From the IMG/VR virus record IMGVR_UViG_3300037246_000311, positions 1 to 56,339 of that record: 56,339 nucleotides of DNA; one strand, given 5' to 3'. The DNA is from a virus (Duplodnaviria > Caudoviricetes). This document shows, piece after piece, positions 48,834 to 55,466 of the stretch. Below the pieces are notes generated by a model. The model was not told where the DNA came from and searched no databases. It saw nothing but the letters and a program-made list of their open reading frames with translations. Position numbers and translations under genes: made by a program. Positions within the stretch are counted from its first letter, which is position 1. Each line of letters opens with the position of its first letter.

Positions 48834-51800
48834 ATGCCATTAGACGCCTGCATCGCCAAGGTTGGAACACTGTCTGAAAACGACATTGCCTTCCTGCGCA
48901 AGGAGATCCTCGACGGCAGCACCGACGAGCAGGCGATTGCCAACCTCGAGGTCCTGGTCGAGCAGGAGGCCGAGGCCCTGGTCGCCAGGATCGAGGAAGC
49001 GGGTGGCACCATCGAGCGCGAGGCGCCACCTGTGGACCGGCCTGACGCTGCCGAAGCGGCATCGCTCGAGAACAACATCAAGCTGGCCGAGGCTACCAAG
49101 TACAACACCAACCGCGAACTGAAGGAGGTGATGCAGGCCAACGTGCTCCAGGCCTACCTGGAATCGCAGGGCTTCGAGGACACTGGCACTCTCGAGGAGC
49201 GCACCGCGGACAACGCCGCGCACCTGGCTGCAGTCGGTACCGCCGATGCAATCTTCGCGCTGCAGGACAACGCTGACGCTGTCGGCTGGTACGACAGGAC
49301 AGTGAGCAAGGCGCTCGAGGTCCTGGGTACCATCCACCCCGAGATCCTGACAGATCCCAACGCCAGGTTTGCATTCACCTTTGCCCTGGCTGTGACCAGC
49401 AACGGCATGAAGGTGGACAACAATTTCAAGATGGCTGAAGCCGCGTATCGTGCCTACAAGAAGGATGGCAAGATGCCGAACAACATCGGTGAGGGTACCG
49501 CTGGCGGCAAGATGAATGAGCACATGGACCTGTTCAATAAACTGGTTGATGAGATGGGCCTCGAGAACTTTGGCGCGATGTTCCAGAGCCAGTTCACTGT
49601 TGCCCAGCTGAAGCGGATGGACCTGGACCCAGGAGGTGAGCTGGTGGACACCGTAGTGTATGGTGCCGCGGTCCTCGGCCCCAAGATCGGCAACGGCTTC
49701 TTCATGAATCTCAACGGCGAGTACGACCAGCTGACCATGGACCGCTGGCTGATGCGGACCTGGGGCCGGTGGACTGGATCCCTGATCAAGGATCGACCTG
49801 ACCTGGTCGAGGCGAAGGTCGCTGACATGGAGAAGAAGCTGACCAGGATGTCGAAGGCCTCGAAGGCCTGGGGGTTTTTCCAGAAGACCCTCGACATGGA
49901 TCTCACCAACCATGGCAAGCCTGGTGGTCCGACCTACATCGAGATCGCACAGCGGATCCAGCTGAAGTCAGTCAACCCCGATTCCAGGTCCGACATGAAC
50001 CGCACTGTCATCGGTAGTCAGCTGCGCAAGCTGGGCAATGGCCTGGCCAAAGATGTGGACGGCCAGAAGGAGGCGCCACAGAACGGAACCGAGCGCAACT
50101 GGATCAGGGGAGTGTTCACTACCATCCTGGAAAACATGCATAACCAGGGCTATACTGATATGACGATGGCCGATCTCCAGGCCTTGTTGTGGTACCCAGA
50201 GAAGCGGCTCTACGACAAGGCAAAATCTGAAGAGGATGTGGCCAACGGTTACGACCTGGATGAGGCGCCCGACTACGCGAACGCTGCCGCTAAACTGGCA
50301 AAGGCGCGGGGCATCAAACCTGCCGCAATCAAGTCGGCACAACAACGAGCGGAGCAGCAACATGCGGATCAAGTCAGCGCAGGACGAGCAGCAGGAGAAC
50401 TTCCAGCACAAGCCGCGGAAGGGCAACCGGCAGCTGCTCGAGGCCTTGCTCGAAAAGAACGCAGCGCGTTCCTTAGAAGGAATATCCTCGTCCCAAATCG
50501 GGTTAGTCGAAGCGATAATGAGAAAGCTAAAAGTTACACGGCTCCGAGCCGAGGAACTCTTGGAAATGTACTCGGCGTAATACACAAACCCAGGCAGGAT
50601 TACTCCAACGAGTTAGCTGCAGCTGAAGTCACACCGATGACCATGGTGGAGATGGAAGCCACACCTGAGAACGCGGACCTCTTCGCGCAATCCATTCAGA
50701 ATATCAAGGACGCTCACCCCGAGGGTGCCGCGGTCTATGTGTACCCGACTGACGAGTACGCCGGCATGAAGCTGTTCGTGAACGAGGACCAGACTGCCGG
50801 CTTCGCCGTGAAGGCAGATGGCGACATCGTCAGCGTCTTCGCCGCACCGAATCGTGACGAGCCTGGTCGCGTCTACTCGATGCTGGCCCTGGCCGTCGAA
50901 CGCGCTGGCGGTACCAAGCTCGACGCATTCGACACCATCCTGCCCCAGGTCTACGCGATGGCCGGCTTCGTAGAAGTTGGTCGGGATCCCTGGGTAGAAA
51001 AATTCAAGCCAGCTGACTGGGACAAGGCGACCTTCATCGAGTACAACAACGGTGAGCCTGACATCGTCTACATGGAATATCAGAATGCTGTGCCTGAGTA
51101 CTTCGCGCAGTCTGATGTCAGCAAGGACGAGGCCCTGATCGAGATCGACAATGCCCTGGAAGATGGGTCCATCAAAATCACCCAGGCCGAGGCTGAAGCC
51201 CTGGTCGAAATGGGATTCACTCACCCCGATGTCCGGAGGACTGAAGATGACAAAGCTACTGAAGCAGCTGCTCGATCCCCAGAGGAAGCAGCCCAAGCCC
51301 GAGAAGATTACGCCGCAGCGACGAGCCGAACTGACAGCGAAGTATCTGCCGAGTTCGCAAGAGCGAAACGTGGCGAAGCTGTTACATTCCTCCACCGAAG
51401 CCATGTAGCTTTCTCGCACTTCGATGACGGGTACCTGGGCGGCAACACTGGCCGGCCTACCGCGCACCTGGGACACTTCCTGACTGCAATGTCTTACGAT
51501 GCGCCTGAGTTTGGCGACAACCTCGTTACCGTTACTTTCCAATTCAAGAAGCCCCTGGTCATCTCGTCCGAAGAGTTCGTCGCGATGGGCGACCGATCTA
51601 TCCAGGCAAACAAGCAGGACCGCCTCGACCTGATGGCCCAGGGCTATGACGGCATCCTGGTCGATGGCCTGGAGTGGGCGATCGCATTCGAGGGTAAAAA
51701 CCTGACGCTGGCGCACGACACATCAGGCCTCGAGTGGATGGAGGCTGAAGTGGAGAAGGGCGAGGGCTTCCTGGAACAGCCTGACCGCGGACGCTACTAC

Positions 51801-54800
51801 CCTGACGTCAGTGGCAAGCGCATCATCCAGCTGACCCAGGCTGCAGATCTCTCGACCTTCTTGCACGAGACCGGACACATGTTCCTGGATATTCAGCGGG
51901 TGTGGGTCGAGAAGTACGGCATCAACGAGAACCAGCAGGCCATGCTTGACTGGCTCGGCGTCGAGAGCTTCGAGGACATCACCAGGGAACAACACGAGAC
52001 CTGGGCCGAGACCTTCGAGGTCTACCTGCGCGAGGGCAAGGCGCCATCGATCGGCCTGCGCCGAGCGTTCGCATCATTCACTTCCTGGTTGAAGCGACTG
52101 TACCGGACGCTGTCGGATCCGCGGCTGACTCGTGCCAAGATGTCGCCTGAGATCACCGAGATCTTCGACCGCATGCTGGCCACCGAGGCTGAGATCGACC
52201 TGGCCGCGAGTACGCCTGAGTACGGTGAGCTGTTCCAATCCCAGGAGCAGGCCGGCATGACTGATGAGCAGTGGAAAAAGTACAAGAAGCTGGCCGAACG
52301 CAAGAACAAAACTGCCGAGGCCACGCTCGATGCCAAGGTGATGAAGCAGTACAAGCAAATGAAGTCGAAGGAGTGGGCAGCTGAGAAGGCGCCACTGGTC
52401 GAGGCCGAGGTCGAGCGCCTGGGCCAGGAGCCAATCCACCAGGCAATCGCTGAGATGTCTACGGACGAGGGCAAGGTGGACTGGCACATGCTGCGCGATG
52501 CGATCGGTGGCTGGCCGAACGGTAAGAACTGGATCGGCAAGGCTGTCGGTGGTGGCCAGGACCCTGGTCTCGTCGCTGAGAAGTACGGCTTCGCCAGCGT
52601 CAAAGACATGTACGAGCAGGTGAAGGAATCCCCGACAATGAAGCAGGCATCCGAGCAGGCTGCTGAAGAGATCATGGTCCAGCGCCACGGCGACATCCTC
52701 AACGATGGTACGCTCGAGCAGGAGGTCCGTGAGGCGATGCTGAACGATGACCAGGCCGAGCTGCTACTGATGGAGCTGAAGGCCGAGAACCGCAAGGCGC
52801 CGAAGATCAATCGGAAGAACCTCCAGCACGAGGCCGAGCTATTGATCGGGACCTACACCTACAAGGAGATCCGACCGAACAAGTTTTACAACCAGATGAT
52901 CAAGGCGGCGAAGGCTGCAGCTGCGGCTGTTGCCAAGGGCGAGGACGCCACCCCGCACAAGATCCAGCAGCTGGCGAACCACTACCTGTACAGGGCAGCG
53001 ATGGACGCCAGGACCAAGATGGAGAAGAGCCGCAAGTTCGTGAAGGCAGTGCAGAAACGGATCGAAGCCGGCAAGATGAAGCCCACCCAGGTGGACCTGC
53101 AATACATCCAGGCTATGGCCAACCTGTCCAAGGCCTACGACATGCGACTGAAGCCAGAGGAACGAGCGCAGTATGCTCGGAATGTCATGGACTTCTTCGA
53201 GGCCCAGACCAATCCCGAGAACAAGGACGAGGGCGATCTGGTAGGCCTGGAGATGCTGGACCCGAACGTGATCGCAGCCATCCAATTCCGACACAAGAAC
53301 GGCACCCTCGAGGGCTTCGAGCTGAAGACCTTTGACGAGATGACTGTCGGTGAGATGAAGGGCGTGGTCCTCATGCTCGAGCACCTGCGCTATGTCGGTG
53401 GCCAGATCGCATCGAAGGGCAGCGAGGAGGCTGCTGACATGCGCGAAGCCGGCCTCGAGTCCATCGATGAGAATGGTGGCAAGGATTATCCTGTCTCACC
53501 GAAGAAGGTACGCGCCGGCAAAATAGCCAGGCTGACCTGGGGAGACTACTGGGCATCACTGCCCTCGATCGTCAACATGGTCCGCAAGATGGATGGCTTC
53601 AAGGATGGGGGCTGGGCGTTCGAGAATATCCTCAAACCACTCCAGGCTGCGGTCGATAAAAAGTTCGAGCTGCAGATGCAGATGTTCAAGCAGATGGAGA
53701 CTTTCATGAGCGGGATCTCTGGCGTAGGCCTGCGCCAGGATGACGCGCTGCCATTCACAACCGAGGATGGCCTGGAGCAGGAGTACACCAGCGAGGAGAT
53801 CTTCATGCTGGCTGTCTACTGGGGAACCGAGTCCTCGAGGGCGGCAGTCATGGAGGGCCACGAGATCAACGAGAATGACGCCATGGCGTTGATGGAGCGG
53901 CTCACACCTGAACAGCTTGAGCTGGCCAACCAGGTCTGGGCGATGAATGAATCACAGTGGCCTGACCTGGCAAGAACAGCCAAGGCAATGATGGGTGTGG
54001 CGCCACCGAAACTGATGGCTACTCCGTTCACCGTCAACGGTGTGCAGATGACGGGTGGCCACATGCAGCTGATGTACACCAGCCAGAGCACTCAGCTGGC
54101 CGATGAACAAGAGCGAGGCATGCGGACCAGCAACGTGGTACCGATGGCGGCAGGATCCACCCACGCCAGGAAAGGATCCGGAGGCAGGGTCGTGAACCTC
54201 GATGCGAGTAACATCTCGATGTCGATTGAAGACAAGACGCAGTACATCGCCTTCTCTGAAGCCGGCAGGCACCTGCGATCAATCCTGAACAATCGCGAGA
54301 TCCAGGACATGATCGTGAAGAAGCACGGCGCCCCGTACTACCGGAACCTGGTGCATGCCGTGGCCGCGGTGGCCGCTGCCCAGCCGGCACAGGAATCTTC
54401 ACAATGGATTGCTCGAGCATCGAAGTGGGTACGCCAGTCAGCGACCTTGATGCACCTGGCCTACTCGTTTCGTAACGTGGCACAGCAGCCAGCTGCAGCA
54501 GCAGCGTCGATCAGGGAAGTCGGGATCATTCCGTTCATCCAGGGCGTGGGCATGTTTGGATCCAACTACTCAGCCATGACTAAAATGATCAAAGAGAAAT
54601 CCAAGTTCATGGAGAATCGTGCCGACCTGGTCAACCGTGAAGCGCGTGAGACCATGAAGAAAGTCATGGCGACTACGAAGTTCAGGATCACCTGGCGTGG
54701 CATCGAGGGGCAGTACTGGAATGCATTCAAGTCCTACGGCTTCATCATGCAGACCATGGTCGATTCAGCTGTGGCCTATCCCACCTGGTACGCGAAGTAC

Positions 54801-55466
54801 AACCTGGGCATCGAGGCGCACGGCGACGAGGCCAGGGCGGTCATCGAGGCTGACAGCGCGGTGGCCGAGTCAGTGGGATCTGGTTCCGACCTGCACCTGG
54901 GCCGGCTGCTGCAGAGCAACCAGACCGAGCTGGTGAAGAGCATGACGGTCTTCCAGTCCTGGTTCAACGCCTACTACCAGCGCCTGTACAAATCCTCGAA
55001 GGGTGGCGAAACTTTTCTTAACCCTGCCTTCTTGATGGAAGCCGTGGTGCTCCCCATAATAATCGCTAACCTGACACAGCTGGCAATCGGTGACTGGCCA
55101 GACGAGGAGGAGGAGTGGCACGAGTGGGCAACAAAGAACTACCTGAAGTTCATGATCGCGACCTTGCCATTGGTCAGGGAAGCCGGCTCGGTGTGGGAGG
55201 GATTCACCCCGACTTCACCGATCACCACCCTGGTCACCGCGCCGTTCAGATTGGAGAGCGAGATCGATTCCTACCTGGAAGGCAGGCAGACCCTGATGAA
55301 GCTCATGTCTGATGTTGGCAAGACCGTGACCTCGGTAGTACCAGCTCCTGGATCCGGGAACATCTGGCGCGTAATCGAGTACACCGATTCATTCAACCAG
55401 GGCAAAGAGGGCGACATCTACAACCCGTACCTGGCATTTACTGAGGGGGCTGACAAAGACAAATAA
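48834..55466 (+). CDS. large polyvalent internal virion protein (2210 aa)
   Basis: Glycosylase-like (GWY, GPKIG.FF.NL, T.DRW, LQA.LW), GNAT-like (LDAFD..LP..Y...GF), ART-like (H.S...F..FD, G.FLT, GYDGI) and zincin (STFLHETGH) modules, then a helical body. Confidence 0.85.
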   Translation: MPLDACIAKVGTLSENDIAFLRKEILDGSTDEQAIANLEVLVEQEAEALVARIEEAGGTIEREAPPVDRPDAAEAASLENNIKLAEATKYNTNRELKEVMQANVLQAYLESQGFEDTGTLEERTADNAAHLAAVGTADAIFALQDNADAVGWYDRTVSKALEVLGTIHPEILTDPNARFAFTFALAVTSNGMKVDNNFKMAEAAYRAYKKDGKMPNNIGEGTAGGKMNEHMDLFNKLVDEMGLENFGAMFQSQFTVAQLKRMDLDPGGELVDTVVYGAAVLGPKIGNGFFMNLNGEYDQLTMDRWLMRTWGRWTGSLIKDRPDLVEAKVADMEKKLTRMSKASKAWGFFQKTLDMDLTNHGKPGGPTYIEIAQRIQLKSVNPDSRSDMNRTVIGSQLRKLGNGLAKDVDGQKEAPQNGTERNWIRGVFTTILENMHNQGYTDMTMADLQALLWYPEKRLYDKAKSEEDVANGYDLDEAPDYANAAAKLAKARGIKPAAIKSAQQRAEQQHADQVSAGRAAGELPAQAAEGQPAAARGLARKERSAFLRRNILVPNRVSRSDNEKAKSYTAPSRGTLGNVLGVIHKPRQDYSNELAAAEVTPMTMVEMEATPENADLFAQSIQNIKDAHPEGAAVYVYPTDEYAGMKLFVNEDQTAGFAVKADGDIVSVFAAPNRDEPGRVYSMLALAVERAGGTKLDAFDTILPQVYAMAGFVEVGRDPWVEKFKPADWDKATFIEYNNGEPDIVYMEYQNAVPEYFAQSDVSKDEALIEIDNALEDGSIKITQAEAEALVEMGFTHPDVRRTEDDKATEAAARSPEEAAQAREDYAAATSRTDSEVSAEFARAKRGEAVTFLHRSHVAFSHFDDGYLGGNTGRPTAHLGHFLTAMSYDAPEFGDNLVTVTFQFKKPLVISSEEFVAMGDRSIQANKQDRLDLMAQGYDGILVDGLEWAIAFEGKNLTLAHDTSGLEWMEAEVEKGEGFLEQPDRGRYYPDVSGKRIIQLTQAADLSTFLHETGHMFLDIQRVWVEKYGINENQQAMLDWLGVESFEDITREQHETWAETFEVYLREGKAPSIGLRRAFASFTSWLKRLYRTLSDPRLTRAKMSPEITEIFDRMLATEAEIDLAASTPEYGELFQSQEQAGMTDEQWKKYKKLAERKNKTAEATLDAKVMKQYKQMKSKEWAAEKAPLVEAEVERLGQEPIHQAIAEMSTDEGKVDWHMLRDAIGGWPNGKNWIGKAVGGGQDPGLVAEKYGFASVKDMYEQVKESPTMKQASEQAAEEIMVQRHGDILNDGTLEQEVREAMLNDDQAELLLMELKAENRKAPKINRKNLQHEAELLIGTYTYKEIRPNKFYNQMIKAAKAAAAAVAKGEDATPHKIQQLANHYLYRAAMDARTKMEKSRKFVKAVQKRIEAGKMKPTQVDLQYIQAMANLSKAYDMRLKPEERAQYARNVMDFFEAQTNPENKDEGDLVGLEMLDPNVIAAIQFRHKNGTLEGFELKTFDEMTVGEMKGVVLMLEHLRYVGGQIASKGSEEAADMREAGLESIDENGGKDYPVSPKKVRAGKIARLTWGDYWASLPSIVNMVRKMDGFKDGGWAFENILKPLQAAVDKKFELQMQMFKQMETFMSGISGVGLRQDDALPFTTEDGLEQEYTSEEIFMLAVYWGTESSRAAVMEGHEINENDAMALMERLTPEQLELANQVWAMNESQWPDLARTAKAMMGVAPPKLMATPFTVNGVQMTGGHMQLMYTSQSTQLADEQERGMRTSNVVPMAAGSTHARKGSGGRVVNLDASNISMSIEDKTQYIAFSEAGRHLRSILNNREIQDMIVKKHGAPYYRNLVHAVAAVAAAQPAQESSQWIARASKWVRQSATLMHLAYSFRNVAQQPAAAAASIREVGIIPFIQGVGMFGSNYSAMTKMIKEKSKFMENRADLVNREARETMKKVMATTKFRITWRGIEGQYWNAFKSYGFIMQTMVDSAVAYPTWYAKYNLGIEAHGDEARAVIEADSAVAESVGSGSDLHLGRLLQSNQTELVKSMTVFQSWFNAYYQRLYKSSKGGETFLNPAFLMEAVVLPIIIANLTQLAIGDWPDEEEEWHEWATKNYLKFMIATLPLVREAGSVWEGFTPTSPITTLVTAPFRLESEIDSYLEGRQTLMKLMSDVGKTVTSVVPAPGSGNIWRVIEYTDSFNQGKEGDIYNPYLAFTEGADKDK
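50362..50580 (+). CDS. nested +1-frame gene inside the polyvalent protein (72 aa)
   Basis: GGAG 7 nt before the ATG; genome-typical GC3 codons shift into this frame. Confidence 0.5.
   Translation: MRIKSAQDEQQENFQHKPRKGNRQLLEALLEKNAARSLEGISSSQIGLVEAIMRKLKVTRLRAEELLEMYSA
51247..51408 (+). CDS. nested +1-frame gene inside the polyvalent protein (53 aa)
   Basis: GGAGGA 6 nt before the ATG; GC3-rich codons in this frame. Confidence 0.5.
   Translation: MTKLLKQLLDPQRKQPKPEKITPQRRAELTAKYLPSSQERNVAKLLHSSTEAM

Follow-up and report, generated by a model that had tools for sequence, protein, structure and literature searches.

Evidence for a conserved gene nested out of frame within the giant virion-protein gene of short-tailed phages

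Introduction

Small genes that lie wholly within larger ones are familiar from the lysis cassettes of phages lambda (Rz/Rz1) and T7 (18.5/18.7), in which a small embedded spanin gene occupies the +1 frame of a larger gene on the same strand, carries its own start signal, and is expressed from the same late messenger RNA (mRNA). Rz1 itself, a lipoprotein that is secreted and bears a lipobox cysteine, is the lysis partner of the product of its host gene. Another association of small and large genes is found in polymorphic toxin and polyvalent-protein loci, where immunity genes follow the toxin domains. This report concerns a 72-codon open reading frame (ORF), here called X, which lies in the +1 frame of a giant ORF of 2210 amino acids (aa) in the DNA of a tailed virus (Caudoviricetes), IMG/VR record IMGVR_UViG_3300037246_000311; the whole stretch analysed, 56,339 nucleotides (nt), is referred to as the window. 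A same-strand nested gene in the +1 frame is a well-known kind of phage gene; what is new to annotation, within the searches made, is the X family and its location. Standard gene callers discard nested out-of-frame genes, and X is among those that they have missed. Comparative sequence analysis makes it highly likely that X is a genuine, conserved and unannotated overlapping gene nested within a gene for a giant virion protein.

Viral overprinting in general, including the overlapping genes of phages phiX174 and G4, has been reviewed (PMC8227390). The part of that review drawn on here also treats hepatitis B virus, in which the spacer of the polymerase lies over the surface gene and codon usage argues that the small gene is the older and that the spacer frame arose de novo, and it sets out codon usage as a criterion for the relative age of overlapping frames (PMC8227390).

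The nested frame, its start signal and its codon composition

The elements of the locus are as follows.

50362-50580, + strand: putative nested +1-frame gene X, 72 codons plus TAA, recognised from the ORF, codon composition, selection tests and homologues
50351-50354, + strand: GGAG, resembling a Shine-Dalgarno core, with 7 nt between it and the nested ATG, read from the sequence
50310-50620, + strand: inter-domain linker in the main frame, overprinted with X, R/A/G/S-rich with atypical A/T-ending codons, delimited by GC content by codon position
48834-55466, + strand: giant ORF, 2210 aa, host gene of X, from the ORF list and translation
49200-50330, + strand: conserved all-alpha N-terminal domain of the giant protein, ending ...LLWYPEKRLYD...APDYANAA
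50739-51011, + strand: next conserved main-frame domain, a match to phrog_2563 (E 3.3e-13)

The ATG of X stands at 50362 and its stop codon, TAA, at 50578-50580; the start coincides with the end of the N-terminal domain, and the stop is found shortly before the phrog_2563 domain. An earlier note on this DNA, made from its letters and a list of its ORFs, had pointed to the GGAG-N7-ATG at 50362 and the 72-codon +1 ORF behind it, both of which are borne out by the sequence, and had described a switch of the main frame to A/T-ending codons over a +1 frame with genome-typical ones. When G+C content is taken separately for the three codon positions (GC1, GC2 and GC3), this switch proves to be large and real. 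The training genes of the window have GC1/2/3 of 0.60/0.40/0.76, a profile resembled in 50362-50577 by the +1 frame (0.58/0.35/0.72) and not by the main frame (0.72/0.58/0.35), and at fine scale the dip in main-frame GC3 extends over about 50310-50620.

The dip was set against chance by holding the peptide of one frame fixed and drawing its codons from genome usage in 5000 draws. With the main-frame peptide fixed, the expected GC3 is 0.73 (standard deviation 0.05), and the observed value of 0.34 was reached in none of the 5000 draws. With the 72-aa X peptide fixed, the predicted main-frame GC3 is 0.34, the value observed.

Selection in close relatives

Three close relatives of the window, here L124, L125 and L126, come from a metagenome scan, L124 and L125 being identical over their shared part. 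Differences between aligned sequences were counted at main-frame codon positions 1, 2 and 3 (d1, d2 and d3). Between the window and L124, d1/d2/d3 amount to 9/8/5 of 72 codons in X and 33/24/101 of 315 in the flanks, so that d3 is 0.069 in X and 0.321 outside it (Fisher p=3.6e-6); between the window and L126 the counts are 9/11/5 of 72 and 34/21/77 of 259, with d3 of 0.069 and 0.297 respectively (Fisher p=2.4e-5). Third-position change is thus 4- to 5-fold lower in the X ORF than in its flanks. The first and second main-frame positions within X change about as they do in the flanks, which implies that the main frame is constrained as well. Both relatives retain the GGAG and the ATG of X.

The effect of each single-base difference on the two proteins tells the same story. 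Differences that are silent in X and alter the linker number 10 (L124) and 11 (L126), those silent in the linker that alter X number 5 and 4, those altering both proteins number 7 and 10, and there is no difference that leaves both unchanged. In its C-terminal half, X differs at 2 of 32 residues, compared with 9 of 33 (L124) and 8 of 33 (L126) for the main frame of the same DNA. Such a pattern is the signature of true dual coding: both frames are under purifying selection, and the stronger constraint falls on X, chiefly on its predicted C-terminal helical hairpin.

The two loci nearest to the window by their N-terminal domain (L002 and L020, also numbered L044 and L045) extend this picture to greater distance. 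In both, a +1 ATG is found at the same place as in the window, with a stop exactly 72 codons on, and the +1 peptides align with X without gaps at 33% and 26% identity. The main-frame linker peptide is recognisably conserved too, at 42% over 66 aa in L020 and 39% over 74 aa in L002. When the two loci are compared with each other, differences per main-frame position are about 0.1-0.2/0.05-0.15/0.5-0.6 outside the segment and 0.33-0.40/0.20/0.17-0.30 inside it. Within the segment the third main-frame position is the most conserved and the first the most variable, indicating that the periodicity of selection has moved to the +1 frame.

Lowered third-position change, taken by itself, fits coding and non-coding overlaps alike, and it is an established idea that rare codons, here the A/T-ending ones, could give a protein time to fold by slowing the ribosome where a domain ends. 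One might attribute the synonymous constraint to a non-coding element of the mRNA or DNA at the domain boundary, for instance to RNA structure, to translational pausing, or to a site for packaging or regulation. Against such an element stand the three-base periodicity of the pattern in the +1 frame, the conservative nature of the changes in the +1 peptide, the lack of indels over 216 nt among the window, L002 and L020, the conservation of ORF start, stop and Shine-Dalgarno (SD) core, and a main-frame GC3 equal to that predicted from the coding of X; moreover, a promoter and terminator scan around the X ORF yielded nothing above shuffles. We regard a non-coding element as very improbable in view of these observations.

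Breadth across homologous loci

The relatives of X were recognised through the +1 frame of loci that had themselves been found through the main frame. The survey comprises 111 distinct homologous loci with a GC content of 31-71%, five more that lacked the WYPE landmark having been excluded. A +1 ORF beginning with ATG is present at the end of the N-terminal domain in 99 of the 111 loci, and it is at least 40 aa long in 78 and at least 60 aa long in 54. An SD core at -17 to -5 precedes 46 of these 99 nested ATGs, compared with 329 of 4597 (7%) other +1-frame ATGs in the same giant ORFs (p=2e-25, uncorrected for the relatedness of the loci). In 25 of 35 pairs chosen across clades, d3 is suppressed relative to the flanks at p<0.01. 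In 18 AT-rich loci (32-38% GC), the +1 frame is open for 128-139 codons, with 107-135 aa from ATG to stop, a length that none of 500 synonymous shuffles matched. The earlier note had looked to the conservation of ribosome-binding site, ATG and open frame in homologues, and to synonymous constraint, as checks on its proposal of an overprinted gene; with conserved starts, suppressed d3 and a +1 periodicity, the proposal of a protein-coding gene in the +1 frame is supported.

A cultured representative is available in Limnohabitans phage DC33, whose host is Limnohabitans sp. DCL3. It is a short-tailed phage described as having an icosahedral head, a 32-nm tail and a 39-kb double-stranded DNA (dsDNA) genome (PMC12195039). 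At the same place it carries a GAAGGAG-N7-ATG followed by a 71-aa X homologue ending ...GLTRQEIVEMAEKFGF, and its main-frame GC3 dips as in the window. The taxonomy line of its GenBank record (PQ492659.1, L127 in the survey) reads Inoviridae, which looks like a record error. Among GenBank phages the N-terminal domain occurs in only three records, and the two inspected (MW202722 and DC33) annotate the giant coding sequence alone. In the full-text literature searched and the main-text portions of PMC10386132, PMC4819975 and PMC12195039, no out-of-frame gene, whether nested or reached by frameshift, is mentioned for these giant proteins, the supplements, with possible ORF tables for DC33, lying outside this scope.

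The genome-typical composition of the +1 frame is what a single true coding frame would have, and an alternative explanation for the arrangement would be an artefact of assembly, in which two genes were fused into the giant ORF by an error of one base and the true upstream gene ends in the +1 frame at 50580. The survey speaks strongly against this: the main frame is open through the segment in all 111 loci, which stem from independent assemblies and include an isolate genome, and it shows amino-acid conservation, with first and second positions constrained like those of the flanks. Furthermore, of 5000 draws with the X peptide fixed, chance left the main frame open in no more than 494, and L002 and L020 have no conserved start codon for the downstream part. 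Such an artefact is the least probable of the explanations considered, and exceedingly so.

A further scenario retains translation of the +1 ORF and dispenses with its start codon. Ribosomes might reach it only by frameshifting near the end of the N-terminal domain, thereby producing a fusion of that domain with X ending at 50580, without any free 72-aa protein. In the window, where the open +1 frame extends back to 50164, a slip anywhere in about 200 nt would suffice, and one database protein (P0022, 448 aa) does consist of the N-terminal domain joined to X via the +1 frame. The frame change in P0022, however, lies far upstream, inside the domain, as in an assembly error or a pseudogene. In 33 of the 99 loci a +1 stop occurs within 10 codons upstream of the nested ATG (two codons upstream in L020, and immediately before the ATG in L073 and L095), no common slippery motif was seen by eye in the short interval, and the nested ATG and SD core are conserved and enriched. 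Because +1 stops lie just upstream in a third of the loci, and because the ATG and the SD core are conserved, the frameshift route is an improbable one.

The gene reading instead implies a separate initiation event at the internal GGAG-N7-ATG, by which ribosomes on the late structural mRNA would produce a free, helical protein of 72 aa. To ribosomes in the main frame the same DNA would be a linker under loose constraint, read on the way to the downstream domains.

Counter-evidence and the openness of the +1 frame

Several observations weigh against a conserved second gene. An ATG is absent from the expected spot in 10 of the 111 loci (two others are cut by contig ends), and 21 of the 99 +1 ATG ORFs are shorter than 40 aa. 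In one of these 10, L133, the linker is short and the +1 stretch runs to only 8 codons, making it the sole locus without a +1 ORF. Suppression of d3 is not seen (p>=0.05) in 9 of the 35 pairs, and neither loci nor pairs are phylogenetically independent, so that the p-values are to be taken as descriptive. A search with X by tblastn in the first 42 viral loci gave nothing at E<=1e-3; because of this lack of a significant match, the assignment of the distant +1 ORFs to one family draws on position, motifs and the profile. In an AT-rich marine clade the codon-usage asymmetry between the frames is reversed, the X frame having a GC3 of 0.62 in genomes with a GC3 of 0.15-0.18. Finally, codon draws on the main-frame peptide left the +1 frame of the window open in 2713 of 5000 cases, and synonymous shuffling yielded a +1 stretch at least as long as the one observed in 215 of 500.

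With regard to L133, its linker after WYPE reads ...TLSAEERAAMLKEF... in the main frame, resembling the C-terminal motif of X, and this could be chance or an in-frame relic.

The openness of the +1 frame calls for some comment. The linker peptide is poor in L, V, I and M, which is why roughly half of the draws leave the +1 frame open; an ATG arises at the start position of X in 1310 of 5000. Across distinct loci, only 24 of 98 score at or below 25 of 500 in the synonymous-shuffle test of +1 openness, and the test is not significant for the window or for most loci of mid or high GC content. Openness was consequently discarded as evidence for the window, where an open +1 frame by itself is no evidence for a gene.

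These figures are also what would be expected if there were no second gene at all, the ORF having arisen as a by-product where a linker of low complexity, poor in hydrophobic residues, is encoded in a GC-rich genome, and its likeness among relatives being a reflection of main-frame conservation. Off-frame identity is 0.2-0.4 everywhere when the main frame is at 0.5-0.75, and other +1 ORFs of 79-86 aa exist in the same giant ORF. A by-product, on the other hand, cannot explain the collapse of main-frame GC3 that no draw reproduced, the 4- to 5-fold fall in d3 or the shift of periodicity to the +1 frame, the excess of X-silent over linker-silent changes, the enrichment of SD cores, or the long +1 stretches of the 18 AT-rich loci. 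It is accordingly considered most improbable, and a conserved nested gene remains the preferred reading.

The X protein family

Within the group to which the window belongs, the +1 peptides share a common plan: they open with a Q/E-rich stretch (...SAQxEQ...), continue through a helix and an S-rich loop, and close with a C-terminal hairpin (...P.LTxExAxxhxxxFG.). In one database, 13 called proteins were matched by a profile built from 17 X peptides. Identity with X is 66-89% for six of the 13, which differ from it by conservative, protein-like changes. Searched against a library of 1.84 billion representatives, the profile found 217 clusters at E<=0.001, 40 of them at E<=1e-10, and nearly all are 55-148 aa long and end where the profile ends. 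A pattern search with the 72-aa X peptide alone found no viral relative, and when X and a 135-aa marine form were run by tblastn against GenBank phages, neither had a match.

The AlphaFold2 model of X has four helices with a mean pLDDT (predicted local distance difference test) of 67.8, rising to 83-86 for residues 51-70. No usable relative of X emerged from searches of Pfam, PHROGs, PDB profiles, Foldseek or the ESM Atlas. Two identifications were entertained and rejected. Transcription activator-like (TAL) effector repeats gave strong whole-sequence E-values, yet no single stretch passed on its own, and the scores are read as the sum of weak helix-cap motif matches to many repeats, not as homology. 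A likeness of ...PGLTREKAEEMARAFGF to the DNA-binding motif of helix-hairpin-helix (HhH) proteins was the other; no HHH family is found among the Pfam matches of 17 members, even at E<=10, HhH chains of topoisomerase V reached only E about 0.1, and there was no fold match at E<=0.001.

Some side observations concern the peptide itself. An X-like C-terminal module stands behind unrelated N-terminal sequence in the database proteins P0081 (203 aa), P0030 (148 aa) and P0153 (168 aa), while P0146 contains the motif ...FGLTREEAEEK... three times, followed by a nuclease-like C-terminus (a weak match to PF18741, below the cut-off). Inspection by eye shows that the peptide IKSAQ occurs twice in window positions 50329-50400, 40 nt apart, in the main frame as AAIKSAQQRAEQQ and in the +1 frame as MRIKSAQDEQQEN, and in MW202722 SAQ is likewise present in both frames a few bases apart. 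The IKSAQ pair probably reflects repetitiveness of the GCN-CAG type that reads alike in several frames.

Relative age of the two frames and the marine clade

A further question about the locus concerns which of the two frames came first. In the clade of the window, the codon usage of the X frame is genome-typical and that of the linker frame is not, and by the criterion cited above this would make X the older of the two, with the linker as the overprinted frame. The proposal in the earlier note that a gene had been captured without breaking the giant ORF fits this pattern of a typical small frame and an atypical linker in the window clade.

The AT-rich relatives present a different situation, and their +1 ORF is listed here.

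L083, L090-L113, e.g. L101:2700-3104: acidic +1 ORF of the AT-rich marine-type relatives, 107-135 aa, ending ...DEEISDSQLESLEDLFE

In this clade the +1 ORF overlaps a folded-looking main-frame domain (...TVTVYHHT...GDT...DDEFPNGRRD...), and several of its members have GAGGAGG 6 nt before the +1 ATG. Given an X-frame GC3 so far above that of the genome, the main frame looks dominant there, and the greater age of X may fail to hold everywhere.

Host protein and possible function

The giant ORF belongs to a podovirus-type structural module, which takes up the 3' third of the window and includes tail-fibre-like genes. Its neighbours match phrog_376 (tail protein) and phrog_418 (internal virion protein), and the C-terminal 1300 residues of the giant protein (51200-55400) match phrog_9880. 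The phrog_2563 region has no Pfam match. Homologues of the N-terminal domain were found in 41 viral contigs or loci at 33-55% identity, and a profile search with the domain gave 171 viral contigs, of which 80 were retained. An alignment of 19 sequences has 53 invariant columns, many of the invariant residues being charged, and AlphaFold2 models the domain confidently as all-alpha (pLDDT 88.8). It has no Pfam match, no PDB sequence match, and no PDB fold match at E<=0.001 by Foldseek. With no such relative for the upstream domain, the earlier note's description of it as glycosylase-like is unsupported, as is the label of effector, since no recognisable toxin or enzyme appears in Pfam, PDB sequences or folds.

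A second +1-frame ATG ORF, of 85 aa, lies in the next linker of the giant ORF (window 51151-51408, + strand). Its main-frame GC3 dip is weaker (0.44-0.57), and no SD-like motif stands upstream. L125 has the same stop, in L126 the frame is open without that stop, third-position change is low in comparison with L125 and not with L126, and more distant relatives lack both segment and ORF.

What X might do can be approached through its position. As a +1 ATG ORF begins where the N-terminal domain ends in 99 of 111 loci, whatever domain follows, the leading suggestion, though a tentative one, is that X may assist this domain or the giant protein as an accessory partner, serving as an assembly or loading chaperone or as a keeper of inactivity. 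The more specific idea of the earlier note, that the nested product might be a cognate inhibitor or chaperone of the neighbouring domain in the manner of a toxin-immunity pair, is speculative. In such a role it would be made in step with the N-terminal domain or the giant protein. A predicted complex of the N-terminal domain with X scored 0.21 and 0.04 against a mark of 0.32, in runs without controls. A more far-reaching scenario, which must be regarded as doubtful, would have X as an ancient, separately translated partner of the N-terminal domain that is older than the giant architecture itself. The giant virion proteins of short-tailed phages from freshwater, marine and soil habitats, with GC contents of 31-71%, would then have been built by out-of-frame read-through of a pre-existing small gene; the linker would be the overprinted part, and the small gene would survive inside it and be needed for domain inactivity or capsid loading.

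If X is the gene that it very probably is, then a family of at least 217 sequence clusters has been kept by selection in uncultivated and one cultivated short-tailed phages, and a conserved player is added to the poorly understood module of internal and ejection proteins.

Comparison with known overlapping genes

Like Rz1, X is small, wholly nested, in the +1 frame of the same strand, and provided with a start signal of its own. Unlike Rz1, X and its close homologues have no cysteine and no hydrophobic N-terminus or leader, and the host gene of X encodes a 2210-aa virion protein where that of Rz1 serves lysis; a partnership between X and the product of its host gene would, moreover, be a matter of conjecture. 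An outer-membrane spanin of the Rz1 type would call for a signal peptidase II leader with its lipobox cysteine and for a membrane i-spanin as the product of the host gene, and this identification of X was rejected for the lack of a cysteine or hydrophobic leader and because the host gene is one for a giant virion protein.

The resemblance to immunity genes of toxin loci lies in a small gene placed right after a conserved domain of a large multidomain protein that is probably injected. It ends where X overlaps the same ORF in place of following its stop codon, and where the domain upstream is no recognised toxin or enzyme.

With the overlapping genes of phiX174 and G4, X shares the same-strand +1 arrangement, a host frame in which synonymous change is suppressed, and a product that is an orphan, lacking database relatives beyond its own group. 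Those overlaps and others like them reside in small single-stranded DNA or RNA genomes, whereas X is found in large dsDNA tailed phages with GC contents of 31-71%. X would provide a clear-cut example in nature of dual coding by a large dsDNA phage, and one in which the small gene, not the host gene, is the more constrained.

Hepatitis B virus offers a further parallel, as here too the flexible linker of a multidomain protein overlaps the frame of a separate protein. That system belongs to an animal virus whose 3-kb genome is extremely compressed, and the overlap described here is one of 216 nt in a genome of at least 56 kb with no evident need for compression. Whereas composition argues for the ancestry of the frames in hepatitis B virus, the corresponding argument for X applies to one clade only and is seemingly reversed in the AT-rich one.

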